DNA of 64,000 bases from Nitrospiraceae bacterium (GCA_002726235.1 PBSN01000008.1:561781-625780), one strand, 5' to 3'. Counted from the first letter of the stretch, positions 3 through 50,625 are shown. The notes: generated by a model not told the origin, from the letters alone. Translations and numbers: made by a program.

Positions 3-578
3 TTCGGATCGAATGGCTCAGGAAAGTCAACTATCCTGAAGACTTTGGTTGGCATTCTTCCCCTTATCACAGGGAACATTCATTACCATAATAGCGCTGA
101 GAGTTCACGGTTCAATTGTGGGTATGTTCCACAAGGCGAAACACTCGATGCCGCCTATCCCCTCTCTGCCAAAGACGTTGTGCTCATGGGAATACTCGCA
201 TACCGTTCGCCTCTGCAACGTACTCATCGCACCCACCATCTCGCAGCAATTGGGCACCTTGCTCAAGTCGGATTGATAGAACACAGCGATCGACTATTCG
301 CCACCTTATCGGTAGGGCAAAAACGGCGAGTGTTGATTGCACGTGCATTGGCAACTCAACCAAACTGCTTGGTCATGGACGAACCAACGAGTGGTGTTGA
401 CCGCGAAAGTGCAAGAACAATATTTAAACTGTTGGAGAATCTGAAACGCATTAGGAACCTCAGTATCCTTGTCGTCAGCCATAGAGCAGAAGAAATTGTT
501 CATATGGCCGACACCGTAATTAGGATTGAGCAAGGCCGGTTAGTAATTGAATCACCGCCAAAACTCGACGAGATATGA
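3..578 (+). CDS. Metal (Zn/Mn) ABC transporter ATP-binding protein, 5'-truncated by the window edge
   Basis: The frame is open from base 3 and contains Walker A GSNGSGKS upstream of the listed ORF start, plus GYVPQ, signature LSVGQKRR, Walker B LVMDEP and H-loop VVSH. Overlaps the permease (ATGA). Confidence 0.9.
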   Translation, partial: FGSNGSGKSTILKTLVGILPLITGNIHYHNSAESSRFNCGYVPQGETLDAAYPLSAKDVVLMGILAYRSPLQRTHRTHHLAAIGHLAQVGLIEHSDRLFATLSVGQKRRVLIARALATQPNCLVMDEPTSGVDRESARTIFKLLENLKRIRNLSILVVSHRAEEIVHMADTVIRIEQGRLVIESPPKLDEI

Positions 579-1453
579 GCACTCTTCTTGAAATGTTCAG
601 TTCAGGCTTCCTTCTGCAAGAAGCGCTCTATGGAAGTCTCTTGCTTGGCATGGTGTGTCCACTCGCCGGAATATATCTTGTACTGAGGAGAATGGTCTTG
701 TTCGGTATCGCCCTGCCTCAGATATCATCTGCGGGCATTGCGTTTGCGTATCTTCTTCACACGGTCGGTATTCATATCTTCCCGCATGAGGATCTCGAGC
801 GCACAACGGCAATGATAGGTTCTCTGACATTTACTTTCGTAGCCATTATCGCCTTAGTATTGGTGGACCAACGAGGATTTACGCTCAATGACGCACACAT
901 CGGTTCTGCATATGCCGTGGCTGCGGCATTAAGCATTCTCTTCGTCTCTGCAAACCCATTTGGAGAGCGAGAAATCCTTTCGCTGCTGAAAGGCGAGGTT
1001 CTCGGAATGCTCCCGAACGACCTCCCACTTCTTATCATAACGGCCTCAGCTGTCACTCTCTGCCTCGTGATTTTTCAACGGTTCTTTACGCTGGTGTCGT
1101 TTGATCCCGCCATGGCGATGACAATGGGAAAAAATGTGTCAGGCTGGAATCTCTTTCTCTTCGGACTGATCGGCATACTCGTTGCTCATGGTGTGATATT
1201 GGTTGGCCCCTTGATGATCTTTGGATTTCTCGTTCTTCCGGCAGTCGCCGCACATCAAGTCGCGATGCTCTATGCGTGGGATATCTCAAAATGCTCACTA
1301 CTCGCGGCAATATTAGGTGGAATTTCAAGTCTAATTGGCTTTTACCTGTCGCTGCGCTTTGATCTCCCCTTAGGACCCACCGATGTTACCACCGCATTTA
1401 TAGTTCTTCTCTGCACGACCCTGTGGACCAAATCCATGCGGGTAAAAACTTAA
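575..1453 (+). CDS. Metal ABC transporter permease (ZnuB/MntB, ABC-3 family)
   Basis: Multi-TM protein with GIYLVLRRM, SFDPAMA and DLPLGPT motifs typical of ABC-3 permeases; coupled to the ATPase. Confidence 0.88.
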   Translation: MSTLLEMFSSGFLLQEALYGSLLLGMVCPLAGIYLVLRRMVLFGIALPQISSAGIAFAYLLHTVGIHIFPHEDLERTTAMIGSLTFTFVAIIALVLVDQRGFTLNDAHIGSAYAVAAALSILFVSANPFGEREILSLLKGEVLGMLPNDLPLLIITASAVTLCLVIFQRFFTLVSFDPAMAMTMGKNVSGWNLFLFGLIGILVAHGVILVGPLMIFGFLVLPAVAAHQVAMLYAWDISKCSLLAAILGGISSLIGFYLSLRFDLPLGPTDVTTAFIVLLCTTLWTKSMRVKT

Positions 1454-1536
1454 ATTCACGAATGTTATCAACAGCTTGAGTATGTTACAGTATTTCCATT
1501 CACTAGCCTACTGCTCCGCAAAGCGAGGAGAAGCCG

Positions 1537-2757
1537 TTGCCCGCATTCACATACCGCGCGACAGATCTCAATGGGGTTGTCACCGAAGGAAAAATGGAAG
1601 TCCGTGACGAACAGGCTGTTGTCTCACGGCTTCAAGACGATGGGAAAATCCCGATTCGGGTGGTCGAAGAACGCGGTCCAGAACCGTCATCGATTAATAT
1701 CTCGATTGCCTCACTCTTTTCGCGAGTATCGAAACGCGAAATTTTGACCCTCACTCAAGAAATGGCGACACTGCTTGAAGCTGGGTTGCCTCTCGATCGT
1801 AGCTTAAGCATTCTATCTGGACTGACACCAAACCAAGCCCTACGAAAGATAATCGACCAAGTACTCACCGATGTGCAGGGAGGAAACTCCTTAGCCACTG
1901 CCCTGTCGAAATACCCACATATTTTCTCACGACTGTACGTGAACCTTGTTCGCGCCGGTGAAACAGGCGGGGTGCTCAATGCTGTGTTGCGCCGTATCGC
2001 AGAGTTCCTCGAACGCGCGCAAGATCTCAAAGATTATCTGAGCTCTGCCATGGCCTATCCGATCGTATTATTCGTCGCAAGCGGCGCATCCATTGTGCTG
2101 CTTCTTGCGTTTGTCGTTCCGCGCTTTGCAACGATTTTCAGCGATGCGGCGGTCTCTCTCCCACTCCCGTTGCAATTCTTGTTAACCGTGAGCGAGATCT
2201 TAAGCACCTACTGGTGGGGGGTTACGATCGTATGCATTAGCCTGATCGTAGCATGGCGCCTCTATACCTACACGCCCACCGGCCTCCTCATTTGGGATCA
2301 GCTAAAACTCAATCTCCCCTTTCTTGGAGCCGTGCTGCAAAAAGCGGAAGTGGCGGGATTGGCTCGAACCCTTGGAACACTACTTCACAACGGTGTTCCA
2401 ATTTTGCAGGCGATGGAAATCGTCAAAGAAACGGTTGACAACCGTGTGTTTTCGCTGGCCATCGACGAGGCACGGCAAAACTTAAAGAGAGGGGTTGGAA
2501 TTGGCGATGCACTCAAACAGATTAAAGTCTTTCCCTCTCTCGCAACCCAAATGACTATCGTGGGAGATGAAACTGGTCGCCTTGATGCGATGCTACTGAC
2601 CGTCGCAGACACATACGACCAACAAGTACGAACATCAATTAAACGCTTGACCGCTCTGTTGGAGCCAATCATGATTCTTGGGATGGCGCTCATCGTCGGC
2701 GGCATTGTTATTTCGATGCTTGTCGGCATCTTTAGCATTAACGACCTTCCATTCTAA
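1537..2757 (+). CDS. gspF: Type II secretion inner-membrane platform protein F
   Basis: Two T2SSF repeats (LLEAGLPL...GETGGVL; LLHNGVPIL...GDETGRLD), ALLEP motif; RBS gagga upstream of the TTG start. Confidence 0.93.
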   Translation: MPAFTYRATDLNGVVTEGKMEVRDEQAVVSRLQDDGKIPIRVVEERGPEPSSINISIASLFSRVSKREILTLTQEMATLLEAGLPLDRSLSILSGLTPNQALRKIIDQVLTDVQGGNSLATALSKYPHIFSRLYVNLVRAGETGGVLNAVLRRIAEFLERAQDLKDYLSSAMAYPIVLFVASGASIVLLLAFVVPRFATIFSDAAVSLPLPLQFLLTVSEILSTYWWGVTIVCISLIVAWRLYTYTPTGLLIWDQLKLNLPFLGAVLQKAEVAGLARTLGTLLHNGVPILQAMEIVKETVDNRVFSLAIDEARQNLKRGVGIGDALKQIKVFPSLATQMTIVGDETGRLDAMLLTVADTYDQQVRTSIKRLTALLEPIMILGMALIVGGIVISMLVGIFSINDLPF

Positions 2758-2768
2758 AGGGCAAACAT

Positions 2769-3209
2769 ATGTCAAAACTCAAACGAAATAGACGAGGGTT
2801 TACTCTCATCGAACTCTTGGTAGTCATGATTATCATCGGCTTGCTTGCCGCCCTAGTTGGCCCCAGACTCTTCAGCAAAGTTGGAAGTTCGAAAACCAAA
2901 GCAGCACAGGCGCAGATTGAAATGCTGGGAACCGCACTGGACATGTTCCGCCTCGATGTCGGTCGATACCCGGAGTCCTCCGAAGGATTAGAAGCCCTCC
3001 GTGAGGAACCATCGGGGGTTGAAAAATGGGAAGGACCCTACCTTCCCAAGCCTGTCCCTCTCGACCCGTGGAGCAGGGAATATGAATACTCCTCACCTGG
3101 CGAACACGGTGACTACGACCTGAGCTCAACCGGAGCCGATGGAACGCCTGGCGGTGAAGGCGAAAGCGCCGATATCGTGAATTGGGGTAACGGGACGGGC
3201 GATGAGTAA
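2769..3209 (+). CDS. gspG: Type II secretion major pseudopilin G
   Basis: Prepilin site RG|FTLIELLVV; ALDMFRLDVGRYP, WEGPYL, DPW and GADG motifs of GspG. Confidence 0.96.
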   Translation: MSKLKRNRRGFTLIELLVVMIIIGLLAALVGPRLFSKVGSSKTKAAQAQIEMLGTALDMFRLDVGRYPESSEGLEALREEPSGVEKWEGPYLPKPVPLDPWSREYEYSSPGEHGDYDLSSTGADGTPGGEGESADIVNWGNGTGDE

Positions 3210-3687
3210 GACCCATGACGGGTTTACACTTATCGAGCTGGTTGTCGTTCTTATTCTGATCGGTATCTCAGTCGCGCTGGTTGCACCAACCATTGCTCAC
3301 AGTCTCGGGCAGGCACAGTTTAGAAAAGATATTCGGTCAGTCTCTGCCATGCTCACACTCGCGCGAAGCCAAGCAATCACACACAAAATTCCATACGCAT
3401 TTTCGATCGACATTAATGAACGCATGATCTGGATCAACCCATATCAGCAAGAACGTGGGGAACCACCAAAACGCATCACACAATCCCCCCTCTCCCACAC
3501 TGACACACTGCGAGTGACAGCGCAGACTCGGGAGAATACCAGCGGAACCCACACATTGATGTTCTACCCCAATGGAAGTTCGGGTGGCGGGACCATTCAG
3601 ATGGCTCGCAGCGGCCAGGAGGAAACGGTCGAGATCAAACTCAATATTGTCACAGGACTTGCAACTTCAACACGCTCGTTAAATTAG
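3202..3687 (+). CDS. gspH: Minor pseudopilin H (GspH/FimT)
   Basis: G|FTLIELVVV leader, ARSQAI, FYPNGSSGGG. Confidence 0.85.
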   Translation: MSKTHDGFTLIELVVVLILIGISVALVAPTIAHSLGQAQFRKDIRSVSAMLTLARSQAITHKIPYAFSIDINERMIWINPYQQERGEPPKRITQSPLSHTDTLRVTAQTRENTSGTHTLMFYPNGSSGGGTIQMARSGQEETVEIKLNIVTGLATSTRSLN

Positions 3688-3690
3688 CTG

Positions 3691-4182
3691 ATGAACCGCG
3701 TTCGATCCACCCTGGGGTTTACTCTTTTTGAAACTCTTATTGCCGTGATGATTCTCGCCATCGCGTTCCCCATCCTGTTCCAATTGTTTTCTGGAACGCT
3801 TCGCGCGGTTAAAAAATCAAGAGATTACACTCAAGCCACAGCCTTTGCTCAGCACAAACTGGAAGAACTTACCATCATGAAATCCCCACCGATGGAATTG
3901 GAATCCGGAAAGGGGCCCGAAGGGATTTTTTGGGAGCGGATCGTCGTCCCAGCCGACCCCATCCCCGAGTTGCCTCCCATCGACGAGGATAGCGGTGGTG
4001 AAGCTCCCATCACACCTCCTGCGTCTCTCTACAAAGCCACAGTCTCAGTCAGGTGGGATGCCGACCCGTCTGCTCCATCAACCAGCTTTCACACACTCGC
4101 CGCATTTGCTCCGACATCATCTGCAGAAATTGACCCAGATGATCCAGACCTTGAGGAATCAAGTGACAACGCTCTCCCCTAA
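3691..4182 (+). CDS. gspI: Minor pseudopilin I
   Basis: G|FTLFETLIA leader, operon position, acidic C-terminal tail. Confidence 0.8.
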   Translation: MNRVRSTLGFTLFETLIAVMILAIAFPILFQLFSGTLRAVKKSRDYTQATAFAQHKLEELTIMKSPPMELESGKGPEGIFWERIVVPADPIPELPPIDEDSGGEAPITPPASLYKATVSVRWDADPSAPSTSFHTLAAFAPTSSAEIDPDDPDLEESSDNALP

Positions 4183-4954
4183 CCTAACCTGCCGGAGAGG
4201 ATTTACTCTTCTTGAGCTTCTGATCACCATCACGCTCCTTGGAGTAGTGATGGTAATCTTGGCTCAAGCCACAACGTTAAGCATTCAGACCTGGGAGAAA
4301 GGAACCGCATCACAACTCGCAAATCAGCAGACATCTGTTGTCACCGATATGTTGTCGCAACAACTCCGCTCCGCTTACCCACTGCAAATTCCTATCACGA
4401 AAGAAGATGGAAGCAAGAATCCATCAAAGAAAATCCTTGTCTTTGATGGAGGACCAGAATCTGTCGCGTTTGTCACAACCAAACCCCTTGGCAATGAAAG
4501 CCAAGCGGGTTTGCATCTTGTTGTGTACTACCTCGAACGTAAAAAAAACGCACCAACGAGTCACCTTATCGCCGCCTATCGCTCCGTCTATCATAGGCAA
4601 TTTTATGAGACCCCTTTTACTGACGAGGAAAAAACTCGACTCCTCTCAGAAGTCACCACCATGAAAATAGAGTATTACGATGGCGAATCCGGAACGTGGT
4701 TTCCTGAGTGGATAATTAAAGATCCAACGCAACCACTTCCACCTGAAGATCCTAATGAGCTTCTTGCTCCCTTGCCGAAAACAACACTTCCCTCTGCCGT
4801 CAAACTCCATCTGGAACATGGACCACAAAGCTCACCCACCCTCTCTGAACTACTGATTCCCATCATCGCCCAAGGAAAAGACGATAAGACGGCGGCATCC
4901 CAACAGAAAGCCGGCGATGACGATGATGACGATGATGACGATGATGACGATTAA
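4163..4954 (+). CDS. gspJ: Minor pseudopilin J with C-terminal poly-Asp
   Basis: RRG|FTLLELLI leader just after a GTG at 4163 with RBS gagg (the ORF track's 3995 start is too long); LPSAVKL C-terminal motif; ends in 12 Asp. Confidence 0.82.
   Translation: MTTLSPNLTCRRGFTLLELLITITLLGVVMVILAQATTLSIQTWEKGTASQLANQQTSVVTDMLSQQLRSAYPLQIPITKEDGSKNPSKKILVFDGGPESVAFVTTKPLGNESQAGLHLVVYYLERKKNAPTSHLIAAYRSVYHRQFYETPFTDEEKTRLLSEVTTMKIEYYDGESGTWFPEWIIKDPTQPLPPEDPNELLAPLPKTTLPSAVKLHLEHGPQSSPTLSELLIPIIAQGKDDKTAASQQKAGDDDDDDDDDDDD
4916..4951 (+). repeat. GAY codon microsatellite (9-bp unit gatgatgac) encoding 12 Asp
   Basis: Read directly: gat gac gat gat gac gat gat gac gat gat gac gat taa. Confidence 0.9.
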
Positions 4955-4970
4955 GAAGCGTGTGAAGTAG

Positions 4971-6086
4971 ATGAACCTTACTATGGAAGGTCCTTTACAG
5001 CATGTGCGACAACAGGAAGGCATGGCCCTCGTGCTCGTCCTATGGATCCTAATGCTTCTGACCGTGCTCGCATTTGAATTTTCAGTCATGACGCGAACCG
5101 AAGCAAAAGTCACCCTCAATCAGCGAGAGTCAACAGAAGCGTACTATCTTGCACGAGCCGGAATATATAAGGCCATTGCTGAACTAAGCCAGCCCGTGAG
5201 TAGCGAACCGGATGATGACGAGGAAGATCTCACGCCATTTAATCCTCCTCCTGACGCTGATCCTCTTGAAGCTCCATGGATGACAGATGGACGCCCCTAT
5301 CAGGTTACATTGGACAACGGCACTGCTGAGGTTCGAATATATGACGAGGGAGGAAAGATCAACCTAAATGAAGCGAATGGATCTACGTTACGAGAACTAT
5401 TGAGCACGCTTCGCCTTGAGCAAAGTATCTCCGGAATCGTGGATCCTATTCTTGACTGGCGAGATCCGGACAACAACTATCATCGGAACGGCGCTGAAGA
5501 TACCTACTACCTATCACTGCCTGAACCTTATCATGCAAAAAACGGTCCCTTTGATACCATGGATGAACTGCTCTGGGTCAAAGGCATTACCCCGGATATT
5601 TTCTATGGAAAACAACCAGAACCAGGGAGGCTTGGACGCATTGGGCTTATCGATGTACTCACCGCCTCCCTTGATGCGAAACCCGCGGTGGTAGGATCAT
5701 CTACTGATGACGATGAAGAGGAGGAAGAGGAGGAGGAATCAATTCAATTCAAAGTGAACGTCAATACTGCTCCTCCGGAGGTCCTGATGTCGATCCCAGG
5801 CATCTCTGAATCCCACACTCGCCTTATTGTCGCCGAACGGGAATTCTTTACATTTCTTACCACTGAAGACCTCGATCCATTCGTAGGTGATATCGACGAC
5901 GCAAGTCCATTTATCAGTTTTCAACCAAGTAATACGTACACCATCGACGCCCGTGGGAGCATCGCATCAAGTCCAGGTTATCACCACATACGTGCCATCG
6001 TCTCCATCTCTCCCAAAGGGCATAGAATCCTCCAATGGAATGATAGTATATACGCGCAATACCAACAGGCCCCGTATGGAAGCTAA
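4971..6086 (+). CDS. gspK: Minor pseudopilin K
   Basis: G|MALVLVLW leader (no E5, typical of GspK); DEGGKINLN, DWRDPD, ELLWVKG and VNVNTA motifs. Confidence 0.92.
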   Translation: MNLTMEGPLQHVRQQEGMALVLVLWILMLLTVLAFEFSVMTRTEAKVTLNQRESTEAYYLARAGIYKAIAELSQPVSSEPDDDEEDLTPFNPPPDADPLEAPWMTDGRPYQVTLDNGTAEVRIYDEGGKINLNEANGSTLRELLSTLRLEQSISGIVDPILDWRDPDNNYHRNGAEDTYYLSLPEPYHAKNGPFDTMDELLWVKGITPDIFYGKQPEPGRLGRIGLIDVLTASLDAKPAVVGSSTDDDEEEEEEEESIQFKVNVNTAPPEVLMSIPGISESHTRLIVAEREFFTFLTTEDLDPFVGDIDDASPFISFQPSNTYTIDARGSIASSPGYHHIRAIVSISPKGHRILQWNDSIYAQYQQAPYGS

Positions 6087-6104
6087 AGAAGGACTCACAA
6101 TATA

Positions 6105-7508
6105 ATGGCGCGAAGCCTCGCTATTCGACTCACAGACTTTCACGCTGAGTTTCTCTGCTTGCAGCGTTTAAGAGGCCGCACGAAGGTGACCGGACGACTC
6201 ACAATTCCCTTGGTATCTCCTGTACAAGAGGATGACAACGAGACCGTTCTTCTCACAAAAAGAGTCACAACATTCCTGAAAAACAACAAGATTCGAAATG
6301 GGCAAGTCTTCGCCTCAATCCCGCGTGAGGAAGTCGTACTGCGAGAGATTCAACTCCCGCTGGCAGTTGAAGAAAACCTCCAACAAGTATTGACCTATGA
6401 ACTTGACCGCTATACGCCATTTTCAAAGGACGAGGCCCATTTCGCATTTGAAATTGTGAATCGCAACTTGGATGCGAATACGTTGACACTCCTGCTCGCA
6501 GCCGTTGATAAGGCCCGCCTCCAAGGATACATCAAACGCCTAACACTCCTTGGGGTCACACCAAGCGCAATCGAAATCACGTCGACGGCCATGCTTAATA
6601 CTTTACGCCAAATACGCAAGCTCAAGGATACGACACCGTCACTCCCTATGCCTCTTCTGGCGATGATCGACATTCACGAAACAGGCTACGAGTTAATCAT
6701 CACGGAAGGCCCGTATCTGCGCTATACGCGATCGATACCGAAAAGCAACAATCTCATGTTGCATATCGGGGTAGAACTGGACAAAGGCATCGCAGCAATC
6801 AAGCGCGAAAAACAAGACGTGCAGGAGGTGATACTCGGATCATCAACCGGCGTACAACGTGAGCATCTCACTCCCGACAGTTTGGCAACCCACACAGGGC
6901 TGCACGTTGTATCGGCAGAGCCGTTTGCGTCTGAATCAATGGTGTTGATGGGCCTTGGGTTTCGTGGTCTCCACAACGGTACACCCACCATCAACCTCCT
7001 CCCTCAACAGACCCAGCTGCAATCGCCACGACGGCGGTATGCACCCACACTTGCCCTCATCGCGTTGCTGGGATGCCTGATGATCGGATATATCGCCATC
7101 GAAGTCGCCAACAACCGCGCCACGCTCAAAAACATCAATGATCAACTGAGCGCGCTCTCGCCGCAAATCTCTTCCATGACGGCACTGCAAGATCAATCCA
7201 CCACGGTCGAACAACGCCTCCAGACGATTGATTCGCTTGCACCAGGTCACCTTGGTGCCTTGGATGTTCTAAAGGAGTTAACAACTATCGTTCCAGACCA
7301 GAGTTGGTTGACAAATCTTACCTATAAAGCCCACAGTGTTACGTTAACTGGAAAGGCAAAATCGTCACCAGCACACTTAATTTCAGTACTCGAACACTCG
7401 GCACTCTTTTACGATGTCAACTTTAGTGAGCCTGTGAGTGGTCAAGAGTTTCGAATTCAGGCAAAAGTGCGGACAAACGCCATCGACATCAACACGGATA
7501 CCCCATGA
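6105..7508 (+). CDS. gspL: T2SS protein L (PilM-like cytoplasmic domain, TM, PilN-like periplasmic domain)
   Basis: Actin-like N-terminus (LPLAVEENLQQVLTYELDRYTPF), INLLP motif before a single TM, LKELTTIVPDQSWL. Confidence 0.8.
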   Translation: MARSLAIRLTDFHAEFLCLQRLRGRTKVTGRLTIPLVSPVQEDDNETVLLTKRVTTFLKNNKIRNGQVFASIPREEVVLREIQLPLAVEENLQQVLTYELDRYTPFSKDEAHFAFEIVNRNLDANTLTLLLAAVDKARLQGYIKRLTLLGVTPSAIEITSTAMLNTLRQIRKLKDTTPSLPMPLLAMIDIHETGYELIITEGPYLRYTRSIPKSNNLMLHIGVELDKGIAAIKREKQDVQEVILGSSTGVQREHLTPDSLATHTGLHVVSAEPFASESMVLMGLGFRGLHNGTPTINLLPQQTQLQSPRRRYAPTLALIALLGCLMIGYIAIEVANNRATLKNINDQLSALSPQISSMTALQDQSTTVEQRLQTIDSLAPGHLGALDVLKELTTIVPDQSWLTNLTYKAHSVTLTGKAKSSPAHLISVLEHSALFYDVNFSEPVSGQEFRIQAKVRTNAIDINTDTP

Positions 7509-8119
7509 CACTGTCCTCACGAGAACGTAATTCTGTCATCATCGGACTAGGTGCCGTATTGTTGTTTCTTGGTCTCCAGTATCTCGCCTTGCCTCTCATC
7601 GACCAGCGCAAAGCCATGAGTAACCAAATCGAAGTCAAAGCCTCGATCCTTCAACAATACCAAGCACGGTTGCATATGCTTCCCTCCCTTCAGCAAGAAC
7701 TGGCGGAACGCCAAGCCCGTCTCGAGGAAACAGAACAGCGTCTGATTAAAGGCTTAACTCCAGCACTCGGTGCCGCACGTGTTCAGCTCATTCTTGATGA
7801 CCTCTCCAAGCGACAGAAAGGAATTGCGATCAAAAGCACACGTGTCCTCGATTCCGAAGCACAGGGCAACTACACGAAAATCGCAATGCGTATCGCGCTA
7901 ACCGCTCAAACAAAGCTCCTCACAGACTTCCTATACGATATCGAACACCAGCCAGCTCGCCTGTCGGTCTCCGAGCTGACAATCCGGGTTCCCAATCCAA
8001 AGAAACCACGTGACTTGCGCGCAGATATTGTCATTGAAGCATTGATGAGACAACCCTCTGAGAAAGACGCGAAACCCGAACAAGATCCCAAGGTACAACC
8101 GAGGAGCGCAACTGCATGA
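7505..8119 (+). CDS. gspM: T2SS protein M (GspM/PilO-like)
   Basis: LSSRER N-terminus, TM, coiled coil, FLYDIE ferredoxin-like domain; ATGA-coupled to gspL. Confidence 0.8.
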   Translation: MTLSSRERNSVIIGLGAVLLFLGLQYLALPLIDQRKAMSNQIEVKASILQQYQARLHMLPSLQQELAERQARLEETEQRLIKGLTPALGAARVQLILDDLSKRQKGIAIKSTRVLDSEAQGNYTKIAMRIALTAQTKLLTDFLYDIEHQPARLSVSELTIRVPNPKKPRDLRADIVIEALMRQPSEKDAKPEQDPKVQPRSATA

Positions 8120-8835
8120 TCCGTTTGCTCAATTTCAGCCTTTTTGGAGGCATACTCGTACTGGGCACTAATATGATCGTCGCCGCGGGCCTTTGGATTC
8201 CAGACGATGACTTTCCTCTCTTCTTTGCCAAAACAACGCACATCCAACCCTTCCAGGCAATATCACCACGATCTCCTGCTATTGTGCGTGTTGGAACGAC
8301 AAAAGATGACATGACAGTCGTAGGCTCCCCATCAAAGGACTCATATTCCGTTATTGTCGAAAAAGATCTCTTTCACCCGACTCGGAAAAAACATATCGTT
8401 CAGAAAGCTGCACCGCGTCCACTCCCGAAGAACTCCGATCAAATACAAGCGCCCAAACCTAAAGATCAGCTTCCGAGACGAAGTCCTACGCACCCTAAGC
8501 GAGATTCGAAAAAGAAGCGCTCAGACCGTTTATCCCTCCAAGGGATCGTGCTATTTGGTGACTACCAGCGTGCACTCATTGCTGACCTCCTCCGAAAACC
8601 ACGGAATCCAATGGATGTCGGGATCGGAGATACCGTTGGTCGGTATACGGTGAAGGAAATATTGGAAGATCACGTCATTCTAACGGCCGGAGAAACCGAG
8701 ACGCGAACACTGGAAATGATGGAGGAAGATAAGTTGAACCGACGGAGCCATCTTGTCACCCCGACTTCTGGAACCCCTCCTAGCGGATCGAGAAATGGAA
8801 AAGCCAAGAAACGGGACCAGAAAGCCAAAAAATAG
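8116..8835 (+). CDS. GspC-like T2SS protein
   Basis: N-terminal TM, KDLFHPTR, Pro/Lys-rich linker and an HR-domain-like segment LSLQGIVLFG..ALI...VGIGDTVGRYTVKEI; lies between gspM and gspD. Confidence 0.6.
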   Translation: MIRLLNFSLFGGILVLGTNMIVAAGLWIPDDDFPLFFAKTTHIQPFQAISPRSPAIVRVGTTKDDMTVVGSPSKDSYSVIVEKDLFHPTRKKHIVQKAAPRPLPKNSDQIQAPKPKDQLPRRSPTHPKRDSKKKRSDRLSLQGIVLFGDYQRALIADLLRKPRNPMDVGIGDTVGRYTVKEILEDHVILTAGETETRTLEMMEEDKLNRRSHLVTPTSGTPPSGSRNGKAKKRDQKAKK

Positions 8836-8885
8836 TTACCCAAGTCGCCCAATTGTGTCACGTATTCATCAAGCTAGATAGACCC

Positions 8886-10946
8886 ATGCAGACATTGAAT
8901 CACGTCTCATGGAGCATGCTCCAAGCACTGCTGATCGTAAGCTTCACTCTTCTTACCGCATTGGGTCCTTATGGCGGCAACGCAAACGCCCAACCTCGCC
9001 AGGAACAGCAACCAAACCAACACCCGCAACCAGAGATGCTCCCACAAAATTCCTCTGAACCGGGATTGGAGACCTCACTTCCAAGTGCTGTTATTCCTCG
9101 ACCCGAGTTGGCTAACCGAACCCCACAGGAAATCGTTCTCAATTTTGACAACGCCGATTTGTATAAGGTCATTAAAATCATCGCAGACATTCTTGAGGTG
9201 AATTATATTATCGATCCGAAAATTAAAGGCACCGTCAATATCCACGCAACTGGAGCGATTTCACGAGATGACCTCATGGTCATTTTTACAGATATCCTCC
9301 GAATCAATCGGGCTGCTATCGTTAAGAACAAAGCCGTCTACCATATCGTTCCAATGGGTGCCATACGAACAAAAGCACTTAAGCTGCGACACCCCCCTAG
9401 TGAATCGCCAGAAAACATTGGCGATCCATCAAACACTGTGACTATACAGATCATTCCACTCCGCTATATCGCGCCATCAGAAATCGAAAAAATCGTGAAA
9501 CCCTTTCTCTCGTCTGGCAGCCATGTAATCGGATATGAAAAAAGTCGTCTGCTTCTCATTACCGATTTTCCAGACAATATTGAAAAGGTCCTATCAATAG
9601 TTGAACTCCTTGATATCAATGTCTTCGAACAGGTCAAGGTTCGACTCTTTCCGATCAAAAACGCGGATGTTACTGACATCGCGCAGGAACTCGAAAAACT
9701 CTTTGCAGCGTTCGAGTTGCCAAGCAAAAGTGGTCGTGGCACAGGGATCACGTTCGTACCTATCACCCGCATTAATTCACTCCTTGTCATCAGCTCTCTT
9801 TCAGAAGCGCTACACGTCGCAGAGCGATGGTTGAAAGAAATGGATACTCAAGAGGGAGAGATTGACGTTCGAACCTTTATCTACCACGTCAGAAACGGCA
9901 TTGCGACCGAGTTGGCCGATATCCTCAACAGCATTTTTGTGCAAAACAAGGAATCCATTCCGGGACAACCACGGACCGCAACTGTCACTGCCAATGACCA
10001 ACAAACCACAAACGCAACTCAATCTTCTGACACCAAAAGCGCCGCTGGAATAACCGGAGAAGTCGAAGTCATCTCCTATGCTACGACTAACACCCTCATC
10101 ATTAAATCAAATCCAAGAGATTACGAGATCGTAGAAGGCATCCTTGAAGAACTGGACATCGTTCCACGCCAAGTATTGATTGAAGTTGCTATTGCTGAGG
10201 TTACATTGACAGAAAACACCGAATTTGGAATCGAGTATGCATTCCAGGACAATGCCACAGATATTACTCCACTTGAGGGCTCCGGGGCCCTGGGATTCAC
10301 AGGTAGGTTTATGAAAGTTCGATCTGGGGACCAAAGAACCCTTTTGGCAACGTTATCGGCCTTTGCAGGCGAAACCGAGCTTCGAGTACTCGCATCCCCA
10401 CACATCATTGCCACCGATGGGAAGGAAGCATCAATTCGTGTGGGAGATGAAGTAGCAATTCGAACCAGTGAAGCGCGACCAACAGGTGCAGACGCCGGGA
10501 GCCCGGTTGACGTGACCATTCAAAGACGGGATACCGGGACGATTCTTCGTGTCACACCTCATATCAATGCGACAGGGCTCGTCACCCTTGAGGTTGACCT
10601 TGAAAAGAGCAACGTGACCCCTCCATCGGAAGGAGCATCGGATGTTGGCATTAACAAAAGAACCACATCGACCACAATGGTCGTTCAAGATGGGGAAACA
10701 ATCTTAGTCGGAGGACTGATTGACGATACCGTGACCGATACCATCAGCAAGGTCCCAGTATTGGGAGATATTCCATATCTTGGAATCCTCTTCAGAAACA
10801 CGACAACAACAGTTAACCGCATTGAACTGATTCTGTTGATCACACCACACGTTATCCGCAATATCAACGAAGCCATCGAGGCGACAGACGGCTTCACAAC
10901 TAGAGTTCCTGCAGCTCAGGAACAACTTACAAGCTATGACCGTTAA
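8886..10946 (+). CDS. gspD: T2SS secretin D, copy 1
   Basis: Signal peptide ending ANA|Q, N0 (IVLNFDNAD), N1-N3 repeats, LDIVPRQVLIEV, ETILVGGLI, KVPVLGDIPYLGILF, ELILLITPHVI. Start uncertain (8853/8886). Confidence 0.93.
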   Translation: MQTLNHVSWSMLQALLIVSFTLLTALGPYGGNANAQPRQEQQPNQHPQPEMLPQNSSEPGLETSLPSAVIPRPELANRTPQEIVLNFDNADLYKVIKIIADILEVNYIIDPKIKGTVNIHATGAISRDDLMVIFTDILRINRAAIVKNKAVYHIVPMGAIRTKALKLRHPPSESPENIGDPSNTVTIQIIPLRYIAPSEIEKIVKPFLSSGSHVIGYEKSRLLLITDFPDNIEKVLSIVELLDINVFEQVKVRLFPIKNADVTDIAQELEKLFAAFELPSKSGRGTGITFVPITRINSLLVISSLSEALHVAERWLKEMDTQEGEIDVRTFIYHVRNGIATELADILNSIFVQNKESIPGQPRTATVTANDQQTTNATQSSDTKSAAGITGEVEVISYATTNTLIIKSNPRDYEIVEGILEELDIVPRQVLIEVAIAEVTLTENTEFGIEYAFQDNATDITPLEGSGALGFTGRFMKVRSGDQRTLLATLSAFAGETELRVLASPHIIATDGKEASIRVGDEVAIRTSEARPTGADAGSPVDVTIQRRDTGTILRVTPHINATGLVTLEVDLEKSNVTPPSEGASDVGINKRTTSTTMVVQDGETILVGGLIDDTVTDTISKVPVLGDIPYLGILFRNTTTTVNRIELILLITPHVIRNINEAIEATDGFTTRVPAAQEQLTSYDR

Positions 10947-13095
10947 CGTATGTCATGGACTCTCTCCCATTTTCTCATGGGGACGGTGGAGAACTGTTTT
11001 GTATTACCCCCTCCTGATCTTCCTCGGTAGTACCCTCTGGGTCGGATGCGCTGGGCTTTACGGACTCACTGCGCAAGACGATTCCCCTCATACCACCTTG
11101 CCGAAGCAACCCCCTCTAAGCTCCACATCACCCACTCACGACCTCCCCAATTCAAACAAAGAACTCGTGCAATCGCACATGGAGACTTTTGATGCCGAGT
11201 CTATCGCGCAGGATGAACAACCTCAACACGCTCTTCAAGAAACTGAAGCGCCACGCTCACCAATTCAACAACCATTGGCGCAGACATCTTCCGAAAACCC
11301 AGAGAATATTGTCCTCAATTTTGACAACGCAGAACTCCACAAAGTCGTCAAAGTTCTCGCTGACGTCTTAGAGATTAATTACCTAATCGACCCTAAAGTG
11401 AAAGGCACGGTAAATCTCCACATAAGGGGAGAGATCGCGAAAACTGACCTCCTGGCACTTTTTGATGACATTATGCGCATCAACCGCGCTGCGATCATTA
11501 AGATCGGTCCAATCCATCACATCGTCCCCATGGCGGCAACAACAAATACCAAGTTGCCAATTGTTAGTCACCCCTACAACACAGAGGGGTCGACCATGCG
11601 GCATTCACGCGTAGCAGTCCATCTTGTTCCACTCAGGTATATCGCACCAACCGAAGTCGCGAAAGTCATCAAGCCATTTCTCTCGCCAGGAAGCCATATT
11701 GCGACCTATGATAAAAGTCAGCTGTTGCTCTTTACTGAGTTCACCAACAATGTCAAGACGATTCGATCGTTGATTGAACTTTTTGACACTAATGTCTTCG
11801 AGCAAGCCACCGTCAGGCTCTACCCTATTCGCCTCGCCCAAGTCAACGACATCGCGCAGGAACTTGAGAAGATTTTTGAAGCGTTTGAACTTCCAACAAA
11901 AAGTGGCGTCGGTATCGGAGTGAATCTCGTCCCGATCCCTCGAACGAATATTCTCCTCGTCATTAGTACAATTCAAGAATCCTTTGATCTCGTGGAGCAT
12001 TGGTTAGAGCAGTTGGACAAGGAAACGGGTGGCACCGAAATTAAAACCTACATCTATCATGTCAAAAACGGCATCGCCGAGGAGCTGTCAGAAATCCTCA
12101 GTAGCATCTTTGCCCAACAAAAATCTGATGACCGCCCCGCAAGAACCGCCGCCCTTACCACACAGCCTCAATCATCACGCGCATCAGGATCTCAAGATGA
12201 GCTTACGGGTGAGGTAACGATCATTCCGTATGCAACCACAAATACACTTATCATCAAAGCCAATCCTCGCGACTTTGACGTTGTGCAAGGCATCCTGGAA
12301 GAACTAGATATCATACCGCGGCAGGTATTGATTGAGGTCATGGTCGCCGAAGTAACGTTGAACGAGAACCTGGAATATGGCGTTGCCTACTCTTTTTTGA
12401 ACAAAGGCAATCCCACCGTACCTCGACTGATGGGAAGCGCAACTGGAACGCTCAGCGCAGACGTGCTGAAGATCGATGCCGGGGAACGCGTCAACCTTCT
12501 CGCGCAACTACGTGCACATGCTGATGAGTCTAGCGTCCACGTCTTGGCCTCCCCTCATCTTCTCGTAACCAACGGAAAAGAGGCCTCTCTTGAGATCGGC
12601 GATGAAATTGCAATCCGTACAGCAGTTTCTGAAGGGCCTGGCGTTGACCCCGGCGCCGCCGAAGCAACGGTCAGAAAAGATACCGGCACGATTCTTAAGA
12701 TTACACCGATTATAAACTCTACCGGCCTAGTCACCATGGACCTCGATCTGGAAAAGAGCAATGTTGCCCCCCCTGCAGTCGGAAGTAGCGATGTGTCAAT
12801 CTCCAAACGCCAAGCCGTCACTTCAATGGTCGTTCAGGACGGGGAAACTATTCTTGTCGGAGGACTGATTGATGAAACGGAACGTGAAGCCATCGTGAAA
12901 GTTCCAGGACTAGGAGATATTCCATACATCGGATCCCTCTTTCAGACCACGACGTTGAATAAGAGCCGTATCGAACTCGTCCTTCTCATCACACCCCATG
13001 TCATTCGTGATATTCCAGACGCCTCAGAAGCCACTGCCCGCTTTGTCGCCAAAGTTCATGCAATCAGAAACCTTATGACTGATCGTGGATATTAA
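10936..13095 (+). CDS. gspD: T2SS secretin D, copy 2 (possible lipoprotein)
   Basis: Same N0-N3 plus secretin architecture (LDIIPRQVLIEV, KVPGLGDIPYIGSLF); the hydrophobic N-region ends in lipobox-like LWVG|C. Confidence 0.93.
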   Translation: MTVNVCHGLSPIFSWGRWRTVLYYPLLIFLGSTLWVGCAGLYGLTAQDDSPHTTLPKQPPLSSTSPTHDLPNSNKELVQSHMETFDAESIAQDEQPQHALQETEAPRSPIQQPLAQTSSENPENIVLNFDNAELHKVVKVLADVLEINYLIDPKVKGTVNLHIRGEIAKTDLLALFDDIMRINRAAIIKIGPIHHIVPMAATTNTKLPIVSHPYNTEGSTMRHSRVAVHLVPLRYIAPTEVAKVIKPFLSPGSHIATYDKSQLLLFTEFTNNVKTIRSLIELFDTNVFEQATVRLYPIRLAQVNDIAQELEKIFEAFELPTKSGVGIGVNLVPIPRTNILLVISTIQESFDLVEHWLEQLDKETGGTEIKTYIYHVKNGIAEELSEILSSIFAQQKSDDRPARTAALTTQPQSSRASGSQDELTGEVTIIPYATTNTLIIKANPRDFDVVQGILEELDIIPRQVLIEVMVAEVTLNENLEYGVAYSFLNKGNPTVPRLMGSATGTLSADVLKIDAGERVNLLAQLRAHADESSVHVLASPHLLVTNGKEASLEIGDEIAIRTAVSEGPGVDPGAAEATVRKDTGTILKITPIINSTGLVTMDLDLEKSNVAPPAVGSSDVSISKRQAVTSMVVQDGETILVGGLIDETEREAIVKVPGLGDIPYIGSLFQTTTLNKSRIELVLLITPHVIRDIPDASEATARFVAKVHAIRNLMTDRGY

Positions 13096-13096
13096 T

Positions 13097-14632
13097 ATGT
13101 CCGAGACACTTCTCCATCTCAACGATTACCCACCAAACCCTCATTTCTGTGAAACCCTTCCTCTCAAGTTTCTGAAAGAACAACACATTTTCCCACTCAC
13201 CCTCGATGGAAATCGCCTTTCGGTAGCCATGGCAGATCCAACAAATATGACCACTGTTGACGCCATTCAACTGGCGACCGGATACGAAGTCATCGGACAT
13301 CCAAGCTCTCCCGAAGATATTCTCCAGGCCATCACTAAGTTGTATCAGCAACATTCTGCGATGGGAGAAATCATCGGAGATATGCAGCCAGAGAATCAGG
13401 AACTCGCTCAGGTTTTGGCGGATGACCACGGAGAAGACGATATCAAACATCTCCAGGATGTCGCGTCAGAAGCCCCCGTGATTCGTCTTGTTAACCTCAT
13501 CATTACACGAGCGCTCGATGCAAGAGCGAGTGATATTCATTTTGAACCATTTGAACGGCAATTTCAGGTTCGATACCGAGTTGACGGCGTTCTCCATGAC
13601 GCAGAAGCACCTCCCGCACACCTTCAAGCAGCCATTACCTCCCGCATAAAGATTATGGCAAAACTCAATATTGCCGAGCGCCGCCTCCCTCAAGATGGCC
13701 GAATCAAACTAAAAATTGGAGGCAAACATATCGATTTTCGCATCTCCACCCTCCCCACCATGCACGGTGAGAGCGTCGTCATGCGTATTTTGGACCGAGG
13801 AAATCTTACCTTGGATCTCATCAGTCTTGGGTTCCCAGATGATATTCGATCAAAGCTCGAAAAAATGATTACTCGACCCTACGGGATGATTCTTGTAACA
13901 GGGCCAACAGGAAGCGGAAAAACAACGACGCTCTATACTACCCTTGCAAAAATCAACTCGCCGGAGAAAAAAATCATTACCATCGAAGATCCGATCGAAT
14001 ACCAGCTCCGTGGGGTTAATCAGATTCAAACGAAACCGGAGATCGGACTCTCATTTGCCAACGGGTTACGTAGTATCGTACGGCAAGATCCTGACGTGAT
14101 CATGGTTGGTGAAATTCGTGATCGAGAAACGGCAGAAATTGCGATCCAATCTGCCCTCACCGGACATCTTGTCTTTTCCACGTTACACACCAACGACGCA
14201 CCTGGAGCCATTACCCGCCTTCTTGAGATGGGCATCGAAGACTATCTGCTTGCGTCATCAATTATCGGCGTTCTTGCCCAACGACTTGTGCGATTAATCT
14301 GCAGCGAATGCAAAGTCCCGTTTGAACCTGATCCAGGATTCTTAAAAGAGTATCATGCCATAGCGAAGCATTTATCCACGCCGACGTTCCAGCATGGCAA
14401 AGGATGCCGCCGTTGTAGTGACACCGGATATTACGGTCGTTCGGGAATCTACGAACTCCTTCCCTGCACCGATGACATCCGGAAACTCATTATTCAGCGG
14501 CCAGAAGCTAAAGTCCTACGCGATATCGCCCTACAAGAAGGCATGCGAACTCTGCGAGAAGATGGATGGAGAAAAATTGCCGATGGCCTGACCACCATTG
14601 ATGAGGTCAGGCGGGTTACTCAGGAGGACTAA
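13097..14632 (+). CDS. gspE: T2SS ATPase E
   Basis: ASDIHFEP, ERRLPQDG, Walker A GPTGSGKT, RQDPDVIMVGEIRD, GHLVFSTLH, tetra-Cys (CSEC...CRRC). Confidence 0.96.
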   Translation: MSETLLHLNDYPPNPHFCETLPLKFLKEQHIFPLTLDGNRLSVAMADPTNMTTVDAIQLATGYEVIGHPSSPEDILQAITKLYQQHSAMGEIIGDMQPENQELAQVLADDHGEDDIKHLQDVASEAPVIRLVNLIITRALDARASDIHFEPFERQFQVRYRVDGVLHDAEAPPAHLQAAITSRIKIMAKLNIAERRLPQDGRIKLKIGGKHIDFRISTLPTMHGESVVMRILDRGNLTLDLISLGFPDDIRSKLEKMITRPYGMILVTGPTGSGKTTTLYTTLAKINSPEKKIITIEDPIEYQLRGVNQIQTKPEIGLSFANGLRSIVRQDPDVIMVGEIRDRETAEIAIQSALTGHLVFSTLHTNDAPGAITRLLEMGIEDYLLASSIIGVLAQRLVRLICSECKVPFEPDPGFLKEYHAIAKHLSTPTFQHGKGCRRCSDTGYYGRSGIYELLPCTDDIRKLIIQRPEAKVLRDIALQEGMRTLREDGWRKIADGLTTIDEVRRVTQED

Positions 14633-23232: not shown

Positions 23233-24375
23233 TCAGCCATCCATAGCACAACGGAAACCGATGTTCGATCGCCTCCCTGAGGGCTCTACCTTAATTCGTG
23301 CCGTAGTACGAAGCCGATTGCGGGGATCCATGTATGAGCCACCACGCGCAACTTTGTGCACTCCATTCGGCGGACCAACCGGATTTTTGGTTTGAGGTGT
23401 GACCCTCATGTATGCATCTTCGGCAAACCAATCTCTCCCCCACTCCCATACATTTCCAGACATATCATACACACCGTAGGGACTCACTCCACTCTCGAAG
23501 TTTCCCACTGTAGTTTGGAGTGCAGCAAGGCCTTCTTTCTCCTGCCGTACAACCCCCTCTCGCAACCACCAACGTTGCCACCACTCTAACCGCACAAGTT
23601 CACGATCTGCTTGATAGCTTCCATTGTTGCTACGGTTTCGATCCCATTCATCACCCCACGGATACAACCGCGCATCATCTCCTCTCGCAGCCTTCTCCCA
23701 TTCTGCTTCTGTCGGAAGTCGCCGCCCCGCCCATTCACAATAGGCGAGTGCATCGTTCCAACTCACATGTACAACCGGAAGATCTGCTGCCGTTTCCGGG
23801 ACTTGATCTCCATCCCAAACACTCAGATCCCGGTTGAATAGAAGCTCCTCCTCCTCCTTATCCTTTATCGCATCTGGGATACGAAGCTGTTGAAGACCGT
23901 CACGCGTTTCAAGCTCTTCCGGCAGTGGTTTTTTTCGAACTTCTTGAAGAGGAACGCGATGCCCTGTTACTTTGACGAATTCCAGATATCGCGCGTTGGT
24001 CACCTCATATTGATCAATATAATAGGCGTCGAGCTGTACTTCATGCTGCGGCCACTCCCGTTTCATCCACTCTAACTGGCACAATGGCCCACAGTCCTTA
24101 ACGGCTACCTCAATATGCTCCTGTGTACTTCCCATCATAAATGACCCTGCGGGAATCAGCACCATGGGAGCACCATCATTTCCAATCTCTATTTTCGGCT
24201 CCCCTTGCCACAGCACAAACCAGACGACAGCAGTGGTAGTGATGCCTAGAAGAGCAAGCCCGAACGCAATCGCCATCATTTTTTTTGCTCTCACACGCTG
24301 AACAAGAGTGTGCGGTTCACCCATAGCACCACTTGGTTGAGAATCTAATTTATCGTGTGAGGGTGTCTTCAACAT
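23233..24375 (-). CDS. Formylglycine-generating enzyme (SUMF1/FGE-sulfatase) family protein, membrane-anchored
   Basis: MVLIPAGSFMMGS, YEVTN, PVVHVSW, RLPTEAEWEKAARG, DMSGNVWEW, RGGS, IGFRC. Start may be 24324. Confidence 0.92.
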   Translation of the reverse strand: MLKTPSHDKLDSQPSGAMGEPHTLVQRVRAKKMMAIAFGLALLGITTTAVVWFVLWQGEPKIEIGNDGAPMVLIPAGSFMMGSTQEHIEVAVKDCGPLCQLEWMKREWPQHEVQLDAYYIDQYEVTNARYLEFVKVTGHRVPLQEVRKKPLPEELETRDGLQQLRIPDAIKDKEEEELLFNRDLSVWDGDQVPETAADLPVVHVSWNDALAYCEWAGRRLPTEAEWEKAARGDDARLYPWGDEWDRNRSNNGSYQADRELVRLEWWQRWWLREGVVRQEKEGLAALQTTVGNFESGVSPYGVYDMSGNVWEWGRDWFAEDAYMRVTPQTKNPVGPPNGVHKVARGGSYMDPRNRLRTTARIKVEPSGRRSNIGFRCAMDG

Positions 24376-25810
24376 TGGGATGTGTGGCCCTAATTTGATC
24401 TCCGAGAAAGGGATAACGCTCGGCCAATCGCTCTTTCATCAGCCATCCGATCCGGCGATAGGAGGCATGCCCTTTCACGCCTGTACGCAGTCGTGAAATA
24501 TATTCGGCTTCAGCGAAATCCATCTTGAAAAGACACCGCATTCGAGTAGCAAACGGAAGCAAATAGGATTTTACCGTGACAGAGGCACCTTGAAGTTCGT
24601 CGATGTCCTTCAACACCGCATTAAAGATTTCTCGTACGGGCGTGTCAAGTCCTGCTTGTTCAAACTCTTTTGGAACTTCATACCCATGCACAGTAGTGAA
24701 TTCTTGGGGAATCTGTTGACAGCGACGATGGCGGTGAAGATCTCGCCACCCTCCAACGTCCATCAGGATATCAAAGACAAATGCATATCCTGAATGAAAT
24801 TCCCGCAACAACTCATCGTACGGTCCACGCCGACGAAGGCTCAGTTCGACAATTTCATTTTTTTCATGCTCCAGCCATGATTCAACGGTTCGGAGAATCT
24901 GACGATAGGAATACTGGCTCACTCGATATAACAACGTCACGACAAGTTCGTCTAAGGGATGGTGAGGTTCAAAAAGTTCAACGGAATCTGCTGGCTCAAT
25001 GTGCTTGAACCGCAGACGTTCACGAACAACCTGTGTAAGGTCGACCATCGTCTCGTGATAATAGGGTCGTGCTTTTGCATGCCGCGCTAATGTTGGTGCG
25101 AGCGGCTCATTGAATACGTGATTCCCTCCCACAAGCTCATTCCAAATATTCACAGGCGACGACCGGCACGCCGAAAGCAATTCCTTGCCAATGGCAACAA
25201 GTTCCGGAATATGGGAGGCAAGTAAGCGAGATATCTGCTTTTCAAGTGTCCGTATGCTCACCACCTGTCCAACATTCGTATAGCTTGCCAACGGAAGAAA
25301 ATAACGCGTCACATCCAAGGTTCTAGCTTTCATCGTACGCTCATAGGTTGCAACTTGCATCGATTCCGGACGAGGCGTGCATTGAAGAAGATATGCGTTG
25401 ACAGATTCATAGAATGAAGCGTACGCCGATGTCAGTTGTTCTGCAATGCTCAAAAATGGTGCCTCGGTCATAGAACCTTTGATCTCTGGAGGAATAAACA
25501 CGCCGGTTTTCGTAAAGTCCTGATAACGACTTGATTTTGCCTGACCATCCCACAACGGCTCATCTTCGATGTGAATGGCAGCGAGTTCAGTGATGTTTTC
25601 AAAACAGATCGTCACATGCCCAAGATCTGCAATTGATCCATGGCCATATGCGAAATAAAATTGTTCCCAGAAACGTTCAGATGAGTGTTCGTGAACCCAT
25701 CGAAGACTCTCTTCGATACTATCCGGAGAGCGACTATATCGTGCCAGCGCATACGCGGATTTCTCCGGCGGCATTGGTGCCAGTGCAATGACTTTTCGCG
25801 ATGTATTCAC
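24350..25810 (-). CDS. thyX: FAD-dependent thymidylate synthase, long two-domain type
   Basis: ARYSRS, YGHGSIADL, KSSRYQ, DVTRYFLPLA, RDLHRHR, LRTGVKGHASYR. Confidence 0.82.
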   Translation of the reverse strand: MNTSRKVIALAPMPPEKSAYALARYSRSPDSIEESLRWVHEHSSERFWEQFYFAYGHGSIADLGHVTICFENITELAAIHIEDEPLWDGQAKSSRYQDFTKTGVFIPPEIKGSMTEAPFLSIAEQLTSAYASFYESVNAYLLQCTPRPESMQVATYERTMKARTLDVTRYFLPLASYTNVGQVVSIRTLEKQISRLLASHIPELVAIGKELLSACRSSPVNIWNELVGGNHVFNEPLAPTLARHAKARPYYHETMVDLTQVVRERLRFKHIEPADSVELFEPHHPLDELVVTLLYRVSQYSYRQILRTVESWLEHEKNEIVELSLRRRGPYDELLREFHSGYAFVFDILMDVGGWRDLHRHRRCQQIPQEFTTVHGYEVPKEFEQAGLDTPVREIFNAVLKDIDELQGASVTVKSYLLPFATRMRCLFKMDFAEAEYISRLRTGVKGHASYRRIGWLMKERLAERYPFLGDQIRATHPNVEDTLTR

Positions 25811-45157: not shown

Positions 45158-45468
45158 AAAAGAAGGTACAGAAAAACACACGGCAAACCGCCAAATGTTC
45201 TCACTGCAGGCAATATGCCTCGTCATACAATGCCGGTCACCACACTGATCATTGATGGACACTCAAATGATAGGTGGATCGCAACGGCTAACCAACGAAT
45301 GGATGGCAAATCACTAACACCCATCACACAGCACACACCAATCACATCACCGCGTTCTAATCCTGTAATACTCACAACCCATTCTTGTTAAACGTTGAAT
45401 CGTCTTCCAAGAAGATGTATCCTTCTTTAGTGATGATGCGAGTAAACCCTGATGGAGGAGGTAAAGGC

Positions 45469-50540: not shown

Positions 50541-50625
50541 ACGGTTCTCCCCAGCATTGTTGAAGCAGGATTCCATCCCATCATCACTGACGAAATAAAG
50601 TCAAAAACTTACGAGACAGGATCGT

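Follow-up and report, generated by a model that had tools for sequence, protein, structure and literature searches.

What does a bacterium do with two full-length secretins encoded side by side for a single type II secretion system (T2SS)? This question is raised by an operon located in a 64,000-nucleotide (nt) stretch of DNA, referred to here as the window, from a Nitrospiraceae bacterium (GCA_002726235.1 PBSN01000008.1:561781-625780). The operon spans positions 1537-14632 on the + strand in the order gspF-G-H-I-J-K-L-M-C-D1-D2-E, and the two consecutive gspD genes encode the secretins D1 and D2. To our knowledge, secretins are generally treated as homo-oligomers of one gene product. A previous inspection of the DNA, made without database searches (the sequence-only reading), described gspD1 and gspD2 as intact genes that overlap by 11 nt, and the open frames found at 8886-10946 and 10936-13095, with the ATG of gspD2 inside the end of gspD1, bear out this description. 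The reading that we tentatively favor, with a confidence that falls somewhat short of even, is that D1 and D2 form separate homo-oligomeric rings, kept apart by their targeting routes, that share one platform. The source genome (1.87 Mb in 27 contigs, 90.65% complete) belongs to an uncultured small-genome marine member of the Nitrospirales.

The two proteins are clearly related to each other and to known secretins. A BLASTP comparison of D1 and D2 showed 335/634 identical residues (53%) and 73% positives, and the motifs quoted for them in the sequence-only reading are present in both translations. Each one includes a Pfam N0 domain (PF21305), three stretches matching Secretin_N (PF03958) and a Secretin domain (PF00263), and both scored above the equivalog cut-off of the GspD model TIGR02517 (426.4 bits for D1 and 393.2 bits for D2; cut-off, 351.35). 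The top solved match of D1 was PulD (6hcg, E 8.4e-51), followed by 5wq7 and 5wln, all of them T2SS secretins with 15 chains per entry. Homology to these and other solved 15-mers suggests that D1 and D2 are multimeric outer-membrane channels. The AlphaFold2 model of the D2 monomer (mean pLDDT 65, pTM 0.33) consists of a leader helix (residues 16-36), a low-confidence tether (37-121), the N0 (128-198), N1 (226-283), N2 (292-360) and N3 (370-459) domains, the barrel (463-690) and a C-terminal helix (693-716). A short helix of this kind follows the secretin core in both proteins, which corrects the earlier description of both as ending soon after the core with no obvious pilotin-binding S-domain. 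Taken individually, D1 and D2 are each an ordinary GspD family member, D2 being an ordinary predicted liposecretin.

Conservation and origin of the tandem

The survey of related genomes for the D1-D2 tandem that had been proposed in the sequence-only reading showed that it is kept in 5/5 species genomes of the genus, in one of them with the pair split over two contig ends. In the four other species genomes, the D2 ortholog (68-86% identity) adjoins, within the same operon, the D1 ortholog (53-55% identity to D2). The D1 stop and the D2 start lie within 11 nt of each other in 4/4 genomes, and the open frames of both copies are intact in every genome of the genus. The protein database contained seven D2-type and seven full-length D1-type clusters plus two fragments; the next relatives, at 42% identity or less, were proteins of metagenome-assembled genomes named as Nitrospiria, Thermodesulfobacteriota or Nitrospinota. 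A metagenome scan with D2 returned two close loci and seven distant ones but no new lineage; the tandem is present on the two metagenome contigs with close loci, whose source species appear to be among those sampled before. Only partial matches, with at most 39% identity, were found in 36 genomes from three other families of the order.

Of 77 related genome loci that were taken, five belong to the focal genus and were not recounted, since their contigs agree in length with those of the genomes above. A second full-length secretin was found in 0/72 of the single-gspD loci from other lineages, where the available flank reached at least 2.2 kb upstream in 58, downstream in 45 and on both sides in 37. 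Five apparent doubles were rejected, four of them being single genes broken by a frameshift and the fifth a 38-bit N0-like match. The operon order in the outgroups is F-G-H-I-J-K-L-M-C-D-(E), with a single D, which was closer to D1 than to D2 in 16/17 outgroup loci examined. A tree of 67 family members places the D1 clade (seven rows) and the D2 clade (seven rows), both on long stems, as sisters with an SH-aLRT value of 100, so that the tandem duplication is lineage-specific and took place on the stem of the genus. The lengths of the joint, D2 and D1 stems were 0.92, 0.92 and 0.44, respectively, the D2 stem being twice that of D1; of the two copies, D2 has evolved faster and D1 more slowly.

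Purifying selection is strong on both copies, and neither is relaxed. The ratios of nonsynonymous to synonymous substitution rates (dN/dS, NG86), obtained from three ortholog pairs per paralog with unsaturated dS, were 0.062, 0.105 and 0.087 for D1 and 0.108, 0.143 and 0.107 for D2. The dN of D2 was about 1.4-1.7 times that of D1, and the dS between the paralogs is saturated. Gene conversion between D1 and D2 was rejected, as the within-genome nucleotide identity equaled the cross-genome identity in every 40-codon window; the largest within-genome excess was 0.08, and the identity was far below that between orthologs.

These data bear on a group of rival explanations, namely that one copy is decaying, that the tandem is an assembly artefact or that one of the secretins serves another machine, which together we consider very improbable. 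Decay is at odds with the intact frames and the purifying selection on both copies. An artefact was ruled out: identity between the copies is only 53%, the four other species genomes have the tandem as well, and a contig from an independent DNA run (other than the probable source) spans the junction at 10713-11153 with 0 differences. As for another machine, the genome has three secretin-domain genes, D1, D2 and one of 527 amino acids (aa) on another contig. The latter is part of a second T2SS-like locus (76-3499 of that contig) with the order gspC-gspD-gspE and gspF further on, in which the gspC product has a PDZ domain and matched GspC_delta with 124.6 bits, below the cut-off. The earlier claim that all other gsp genes are single copy holds within the operon, as judged by Pfam, but not for the genome, which has this separate locus. 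There are two GspE and two GspF, one set in the operon and the other in the second locus, each with its own neighboring secretin gene or genes, and a PilB/PilT-type third system was not found in the genome assembly. Since only two GspE and two GspF are available for three secretins, the extra pore is not expected to belong to a third machine, and, for this assembly, the idea that D1 or D2 is an extra secretin of a third machine or of an orphan pilus was rejected. The three secretins appear to serve two machines, with the extra one belonging to the gspF-E operon. Secretins of about 520-550 aa, a size like that of the second-locus GspD, were matched across other families of the order.

Leaders and sites of divergence

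The leaders of the two secretins are of different types, as the sequence-only reading had proposed. D1 starts with a signal-peptidase-I-type leader ending in ANA before Q, whereas D2 has LWVG followed by Cys38 (codon 11047-11049). These types are consistent among the orthologs. The 8/8 D1-type N-termini have a hydrophobic core, an A-x-A-like end and no Cys, and the lipobox Cys is present in 6/6 available D2-type N-termini, two more D2-type sequences being truncated. The h-region of these six ends in [G/S]-Cys followed by Ala (LWVGC, LWLGC, LWIGC, LWMGC, LWTSC and the atypical VNFGC). The D2 leader satisfies a PROSITE-like lipobox rule, and the genome encodes Lgt (261 bits), LspA (141.4 bits) and LolA (95.5 bits). 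We infer that D2 is probably lipidated. No pilotin gene had been recognized in the sequence-only reading, and searches of the assembly (90.65% complete) for PulS/OutS-type (PF09691) and AspS-type (PF16549) pilotins found neither, a result that leaves room for a TPR-type pilotin or one of another kind.

A lipobox is not unusual in itself, since it was found in canonical form in 45/104 members of the "delta-type" GspD family with a usable N-terminus and, by the rule applied, was missing from 59/104; it is common in this family and, by itself, the one in D2 is ordinary. Liposecretins outside Pseudomonas seem to be far commoner than the literature consulted suggests. The nearest outgroup clade mixes members with and without a lipobox, which is compatible both with a loss in D1 and with a gain in D2. 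D1 has a linker of about 49 residues before N0 (8991-9137), predicted to be disordered, in which an LLPLN-like motif is conserved within the D1 clade; the D2 tether (11050-11301) has an acidic D-T/A-E-S-x-x-Q-D-E-Q-like motif conserved within the D2 clade. These clade-specific motifs hint at unrecognized binding partners.

The positions at which the copies differ were located in an alignment of both clades and 11 outgroups that has 625 columns ungapped in both clades. While 209/625 columns are invariant and identical across both clades, 50 are fixed within each clade and different between them. They are concentrated in the central-gate hairpin, in the leaders and linkers, and in the C-terminal tail. 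Eleven of the 50 are found within a single 30-residue segment (D2 556-585, D1 521-552), where conservation within each clade is also at its highest (0.97 and 0.99). This region aligns to the PulD segment VPVLTGSQTT..NTVERK, which we take from the secretin cryo-EM literature to be the central-gate hairpin. Compared to the 11 outgroup GspDs, the gate hairpin of both copies is longer by an insertion of 4-5 residues and has lost its hydrophobic K-I-F-I-like motif, and the copies share a 10-residue deletion in a barrel loop near D2 505. The insertion and the deletion are common to both copies, which places a remodeling of the pore ahead of the duplication. Among the 38/50 sites with a clear outgroup majority, the outgroup residue is found in D1 at 19, in D2 at 10 and in neither at 9.

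The sequence-only reading had raised the possibility of two alternative gates with different N0 substrate specificity. The N0 part of this idea was weakened, as N0 is not the region in which the copies differ most: its identity between copies is 50-63%, about the protein average, with four fixed differences that include two Tyr-to-His changes in D2. The parts that stay alike are N2 (67-70%), the end of N3 (80%) and the late barrel (67-77%). The last 14 residues are only 21% identical between D1 and D2. In the D1 C-terminal tail (10863-10946), all D1-type sequences have a Pro within the C-terminal helix (V/L-P-A/G-A/V/I), and the helix of D2 and the outgroups shows an amphipathic F-x-x-K-L-x-x-L pattern. 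A subunit-stapling or pilotin-binding helix may have been shortened in D1.

The pattern of divergence is also relevant to the idea that one secretin is a redundant or condition-specific spare (for temperature, pressure or envelope stress) or a backup with no mechanistic difference, which we regard as quite unlikely. The identical domain plan within one operon, the higher dN of D2 and the closeness of D1 to the outgroup GspDs are compatible with a spare copy, but plain redundancy rarely lasts long enough for dS to become saturated while both copies stay at a dN/dS of at most 0.14. The 50 fixed paralog-specific differences and the different leaders also argue against it, and separate regulation is hardly to be expected of overlapping genes that are co-transcribed.

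One ring or two

According to the favored reading, tandem duplication of a "delta-type" GspD gene within one T2SS operon would have led to two functional outer-membrane secretins whose synthesis is tightly coupled at translation. D2 would be a lipoprotein processed by Lgt and LspA, carried by Lol and self-piloting as is HxcQ, the liposecretin of the Pseudomonas aeruginosa Hxc T2SS (Viarre et al. 2009, as described in PMC3542185 and PMC3230066). D1 would be cleaved by signal peptidase I and insert with no lipid anchor. The different routes would keep D1 and D2 apart, so that each forms a homo-oligomeric channel with a central gate of its own, and both channels would dock on one GspC and one inner-membrane platform, an arrangement of one motor with two gates. 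Separate rings are supported by the argument of PMC3230066 that the diversity of targeting routes among related secretins probably exists to prevent the formation of non-functional mixed multimers. In the same article, XcpQ is described as needing neither Lol, Bam nor a pilotin to reach the outer membrane and as inserting into liposomes by itself. The use of one platform by two secretins has a parallel in XphA/XqhA, a second GspCD unit that operates together with a single Xcp machine (Michel et al. 2007, via the review PMC6567927).

A mixed ring is, in our opinion, doubtful. In such a ring, D1 and D2 would be subunits of one hetero-oligomer in which the anchor of D2 carries the pre-pore via Lol and pilots D1, with a two-component gate. 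The close spacing of the D1 stop and D2 start in 4/4 genomes and the strict 1:1 pairing, with no lineage having one copy alone, are what would be expected of such partners. The conservation of the ring-building N2, N3 end and late barrel and the hairpin insertion common to both copies, later fixed in different forms, also agree with it. D1 has no lipid anchor, no pilotin was found, and the Pro in the C-terminal helix is clade-wide in D1. Full-length and truncated PulD chains readily form mixed multimers in vitro (PMC4604470). However, single GspDs that are not lipidated are frequent in the family (59/104 without a lipobox), so that D1 has no obvious need of a pilot. The published view that mixed multimers are non-functional and avoided by distinct targeting (PMC3230066) also counts against a mixed ring. 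The solved T2SS secretins are 15-mers, which excludes strict alternation. The corollary, that the locus encodes a natural hetero-oligomeric secretin, the first of its kind, in which D2 carries D1 and the two hairpins build a composite gate, is held to be just as doubtful.

Several considerations weigh against two separate rings. Co-translated paralogs of ring-forming homomers often keep the ability to co-assemble. Secretin subunits contact each other mostly through the backbones of beta-strands, and the pIV secretins of phages f1 and IKe form mixed multimers. The tight 1:1 coupling of gspD1 and gspD2 suits a hetero-complex at least as well as separate rings. The lipidation of D2 is a rule-based prediction; Cys38 lies slightly beyond the PROSITE position range and one ortholog has an atypical lipobox. 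Finally, one RNA library yielded eight contigs, five of which match at 99% identity or more only on 8000-9342, where gspM, the gspC-like gene and about 450 nt at the start of gspD1 are matched with 0 differences, while the other three are short and match gspE (~13890-14199) at 90-95% identity. No contig of this library, which may hold DNA, lies on gspD2, a result that says nothing about D2 expression, and a second RNA-library run had 0 contigs on the window.

Operon context and comparison with known systems

The features of the operon are listed in Table 1. The gspC-like gene is located between gspM and gspD, the same position as in the outgroup operons. Its product has an N-terminal membrane helix, a linker, an HR-like C-terminal domain and a Lys-rich tail; a PDZ domain is absent and the Pfam scan gave no match. 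The PilM and PilN models scored better than T2SSL on the gspL product, which fits a T2SS of a type closer to type IV pilus machines. The gspE ATG is 1 nt past the gspD2 stop, and an alternative GTG at 13085 would overlap gspD2.

Table 1. Coordinates in the window of the T2SS operon genes and of the segments of the two secretins
Feature	Position	Strand	Basis
gspF, inner-membrane platform protein	1537..2757	+	Pfam T2SSF, 2 stretches, E 2.6e-62
gspG, major pseudopilin	2769..3209	+	Pfam T2SSG E 5.7e-41; N_methyl
gspH, minor pseudopilin	3202..3687	+	Pfam GspH E 3.7e-7; N_methyl
gspI-like minor pseudopilin	3691..4182	+	NCBIfam XpsI 6.3e-11, gspI 7.1e-6, both below cut-off
gspJ-like minor pseudopilin	4139..4954, start approximate (Met before prepilin motif)	+	Pfam N_methyl, T2SSJ 7.8e-5; translation
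gspK	4971..6086	+	Pfam T2SSK_1st 1.3e-16, T2SSK
gspL, PilM/PilN-like type	6105..7508	+	Pfam PilN, PilM_2, T2SSL
gspM, XpsM type	7505..8119	+	NCBIfam T2SS_GspM_XpsM 89.5 bits (cut-off 60)
Probable gspC, single copy, 239 aa	8116..8835	+	NCBIfam GspC_delta 8.9e-7, weak, below cut-off
gspD1, non-lipidated secretin, 686 aa	8886 (ATG)..10946 (TAA)	+	homology, dN/dS
D1 signal peptide, 35 aa, AXA site ANA/Q, no Cys	8886..8990	+	sequence inspection
D1 central-gate hairpin, residues 521-552	10446..10541	+	alignment; PulD segment match
gspD2, probable liposecretin, 719 aa	10936 (ATG)..13095 (TAA)	+	homology, dN/dS, AlphaFold2 layout
D2 lipoprotein-type leader: n-region R17 and R19, h-region, LWVG-C38	10936..11049	+	PROSITE-like lipobox rule
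D2 tether, lipid anchor to N0, ~85 aa, predicted disordered	11050..11301	+	AlphaFold2 pLDDT <50, residues 37-121
D2 central-gate hairpin, residues 556-585	12601..12690	+	alignment of both clades
gspE ATPase	13097..14632	+	Pfam T2SSE 6.1e-144, MshEN

Elsewhere in the window, a 486-aa open reading frame at 24353-25810 (- strand) has two Thy1 (ThyX) stretches, about twice the usual ThyX length, and adjoins an FGE-sulfatase-family gene (23236-24375). Two genes for Sel1-repeat proteins, with four (45385-46260, + strand) and eight repeats (49347-50576, - strand), flank a pair of radical-SAM methylthiotransferase-like genes.

The comparison with known systems showed partial likenesses. D2 shares with HxcQ its place among the T2SS GspDs, the lipoprotein-type leader and the long tether that precedes N0; no PulS/OutS-type or AspS-type pilotin was found, and the genome has the Lol pathway. 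However, HxcQ is the sole secretin of its operon, while the predicted liposecretin D2 has a non-lipidated paralog directly upstream. D1 resembles XcpQ of P. aeruginosa in being a non-lipidated T2SS secretin with no known pilotin (PMC3230066); XcpQ, in contrast, is a single-copy gammaproteobacterial GspD, and D1 belongs to the "delta-type" GspD family and has the linker before N0. The XphA/XqhA case indicates that two different secretins can serve one inner-membrane T2SS set, but XqhA is encoded away from the xcp locus, under regulation of its own, and is paired with a dedicated GspC, XphA (PMC6567927). The locus described here includes one GspC-like gene, and its secretin genes overlap within the operon. 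In the mitochondrial T2SS-derived system, GspD coexists with a divergent GspDL, and the authors suggest an elaborated pore (PMC8134430). Two secretin C-domain paralogs in one system are shared with D1 and D2, but that system is eukaryotic, its N-domains are separate proteins and GspDL is very divergent, whereas D1 and D2 are full-length and 53% identical. Three unlinked paralogs have been described in Myxococcus (PMC12475490), and Shewanella vesiculosa has GspD1 and GspD2 (PMC6971210).

Tandem gspD genes in one T2SS operon were not found described in the literature searched, which did not include subscription journals. The S. vesiculosa gspD1 and gspD2 genes are reportedly in separate loci. 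The new element is the arrangement: two full-length paralogs encoded by overlapping genes, one predicted to be lipidated and the other not, with one GspC.

The locus is a natural test of mixing versus insulation, as two 53%-identical secretins that carry different targeting signals are made simultaneously and in one place from genes that overlap, a state retained under purifying selection throughout the genus. Separate rings would mean that paralogous pores can be insulated from each other by their targeting route alone and that a single T2SS motor can work with two gates. If the ring is mixed, it would be a new kind of secretin, with a specialization of subunits within a ring pore such as that of proteasomes and chaperonins. 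The clustering of the fixed differences in the gate hairpin points to residues that may be relevant to gating.

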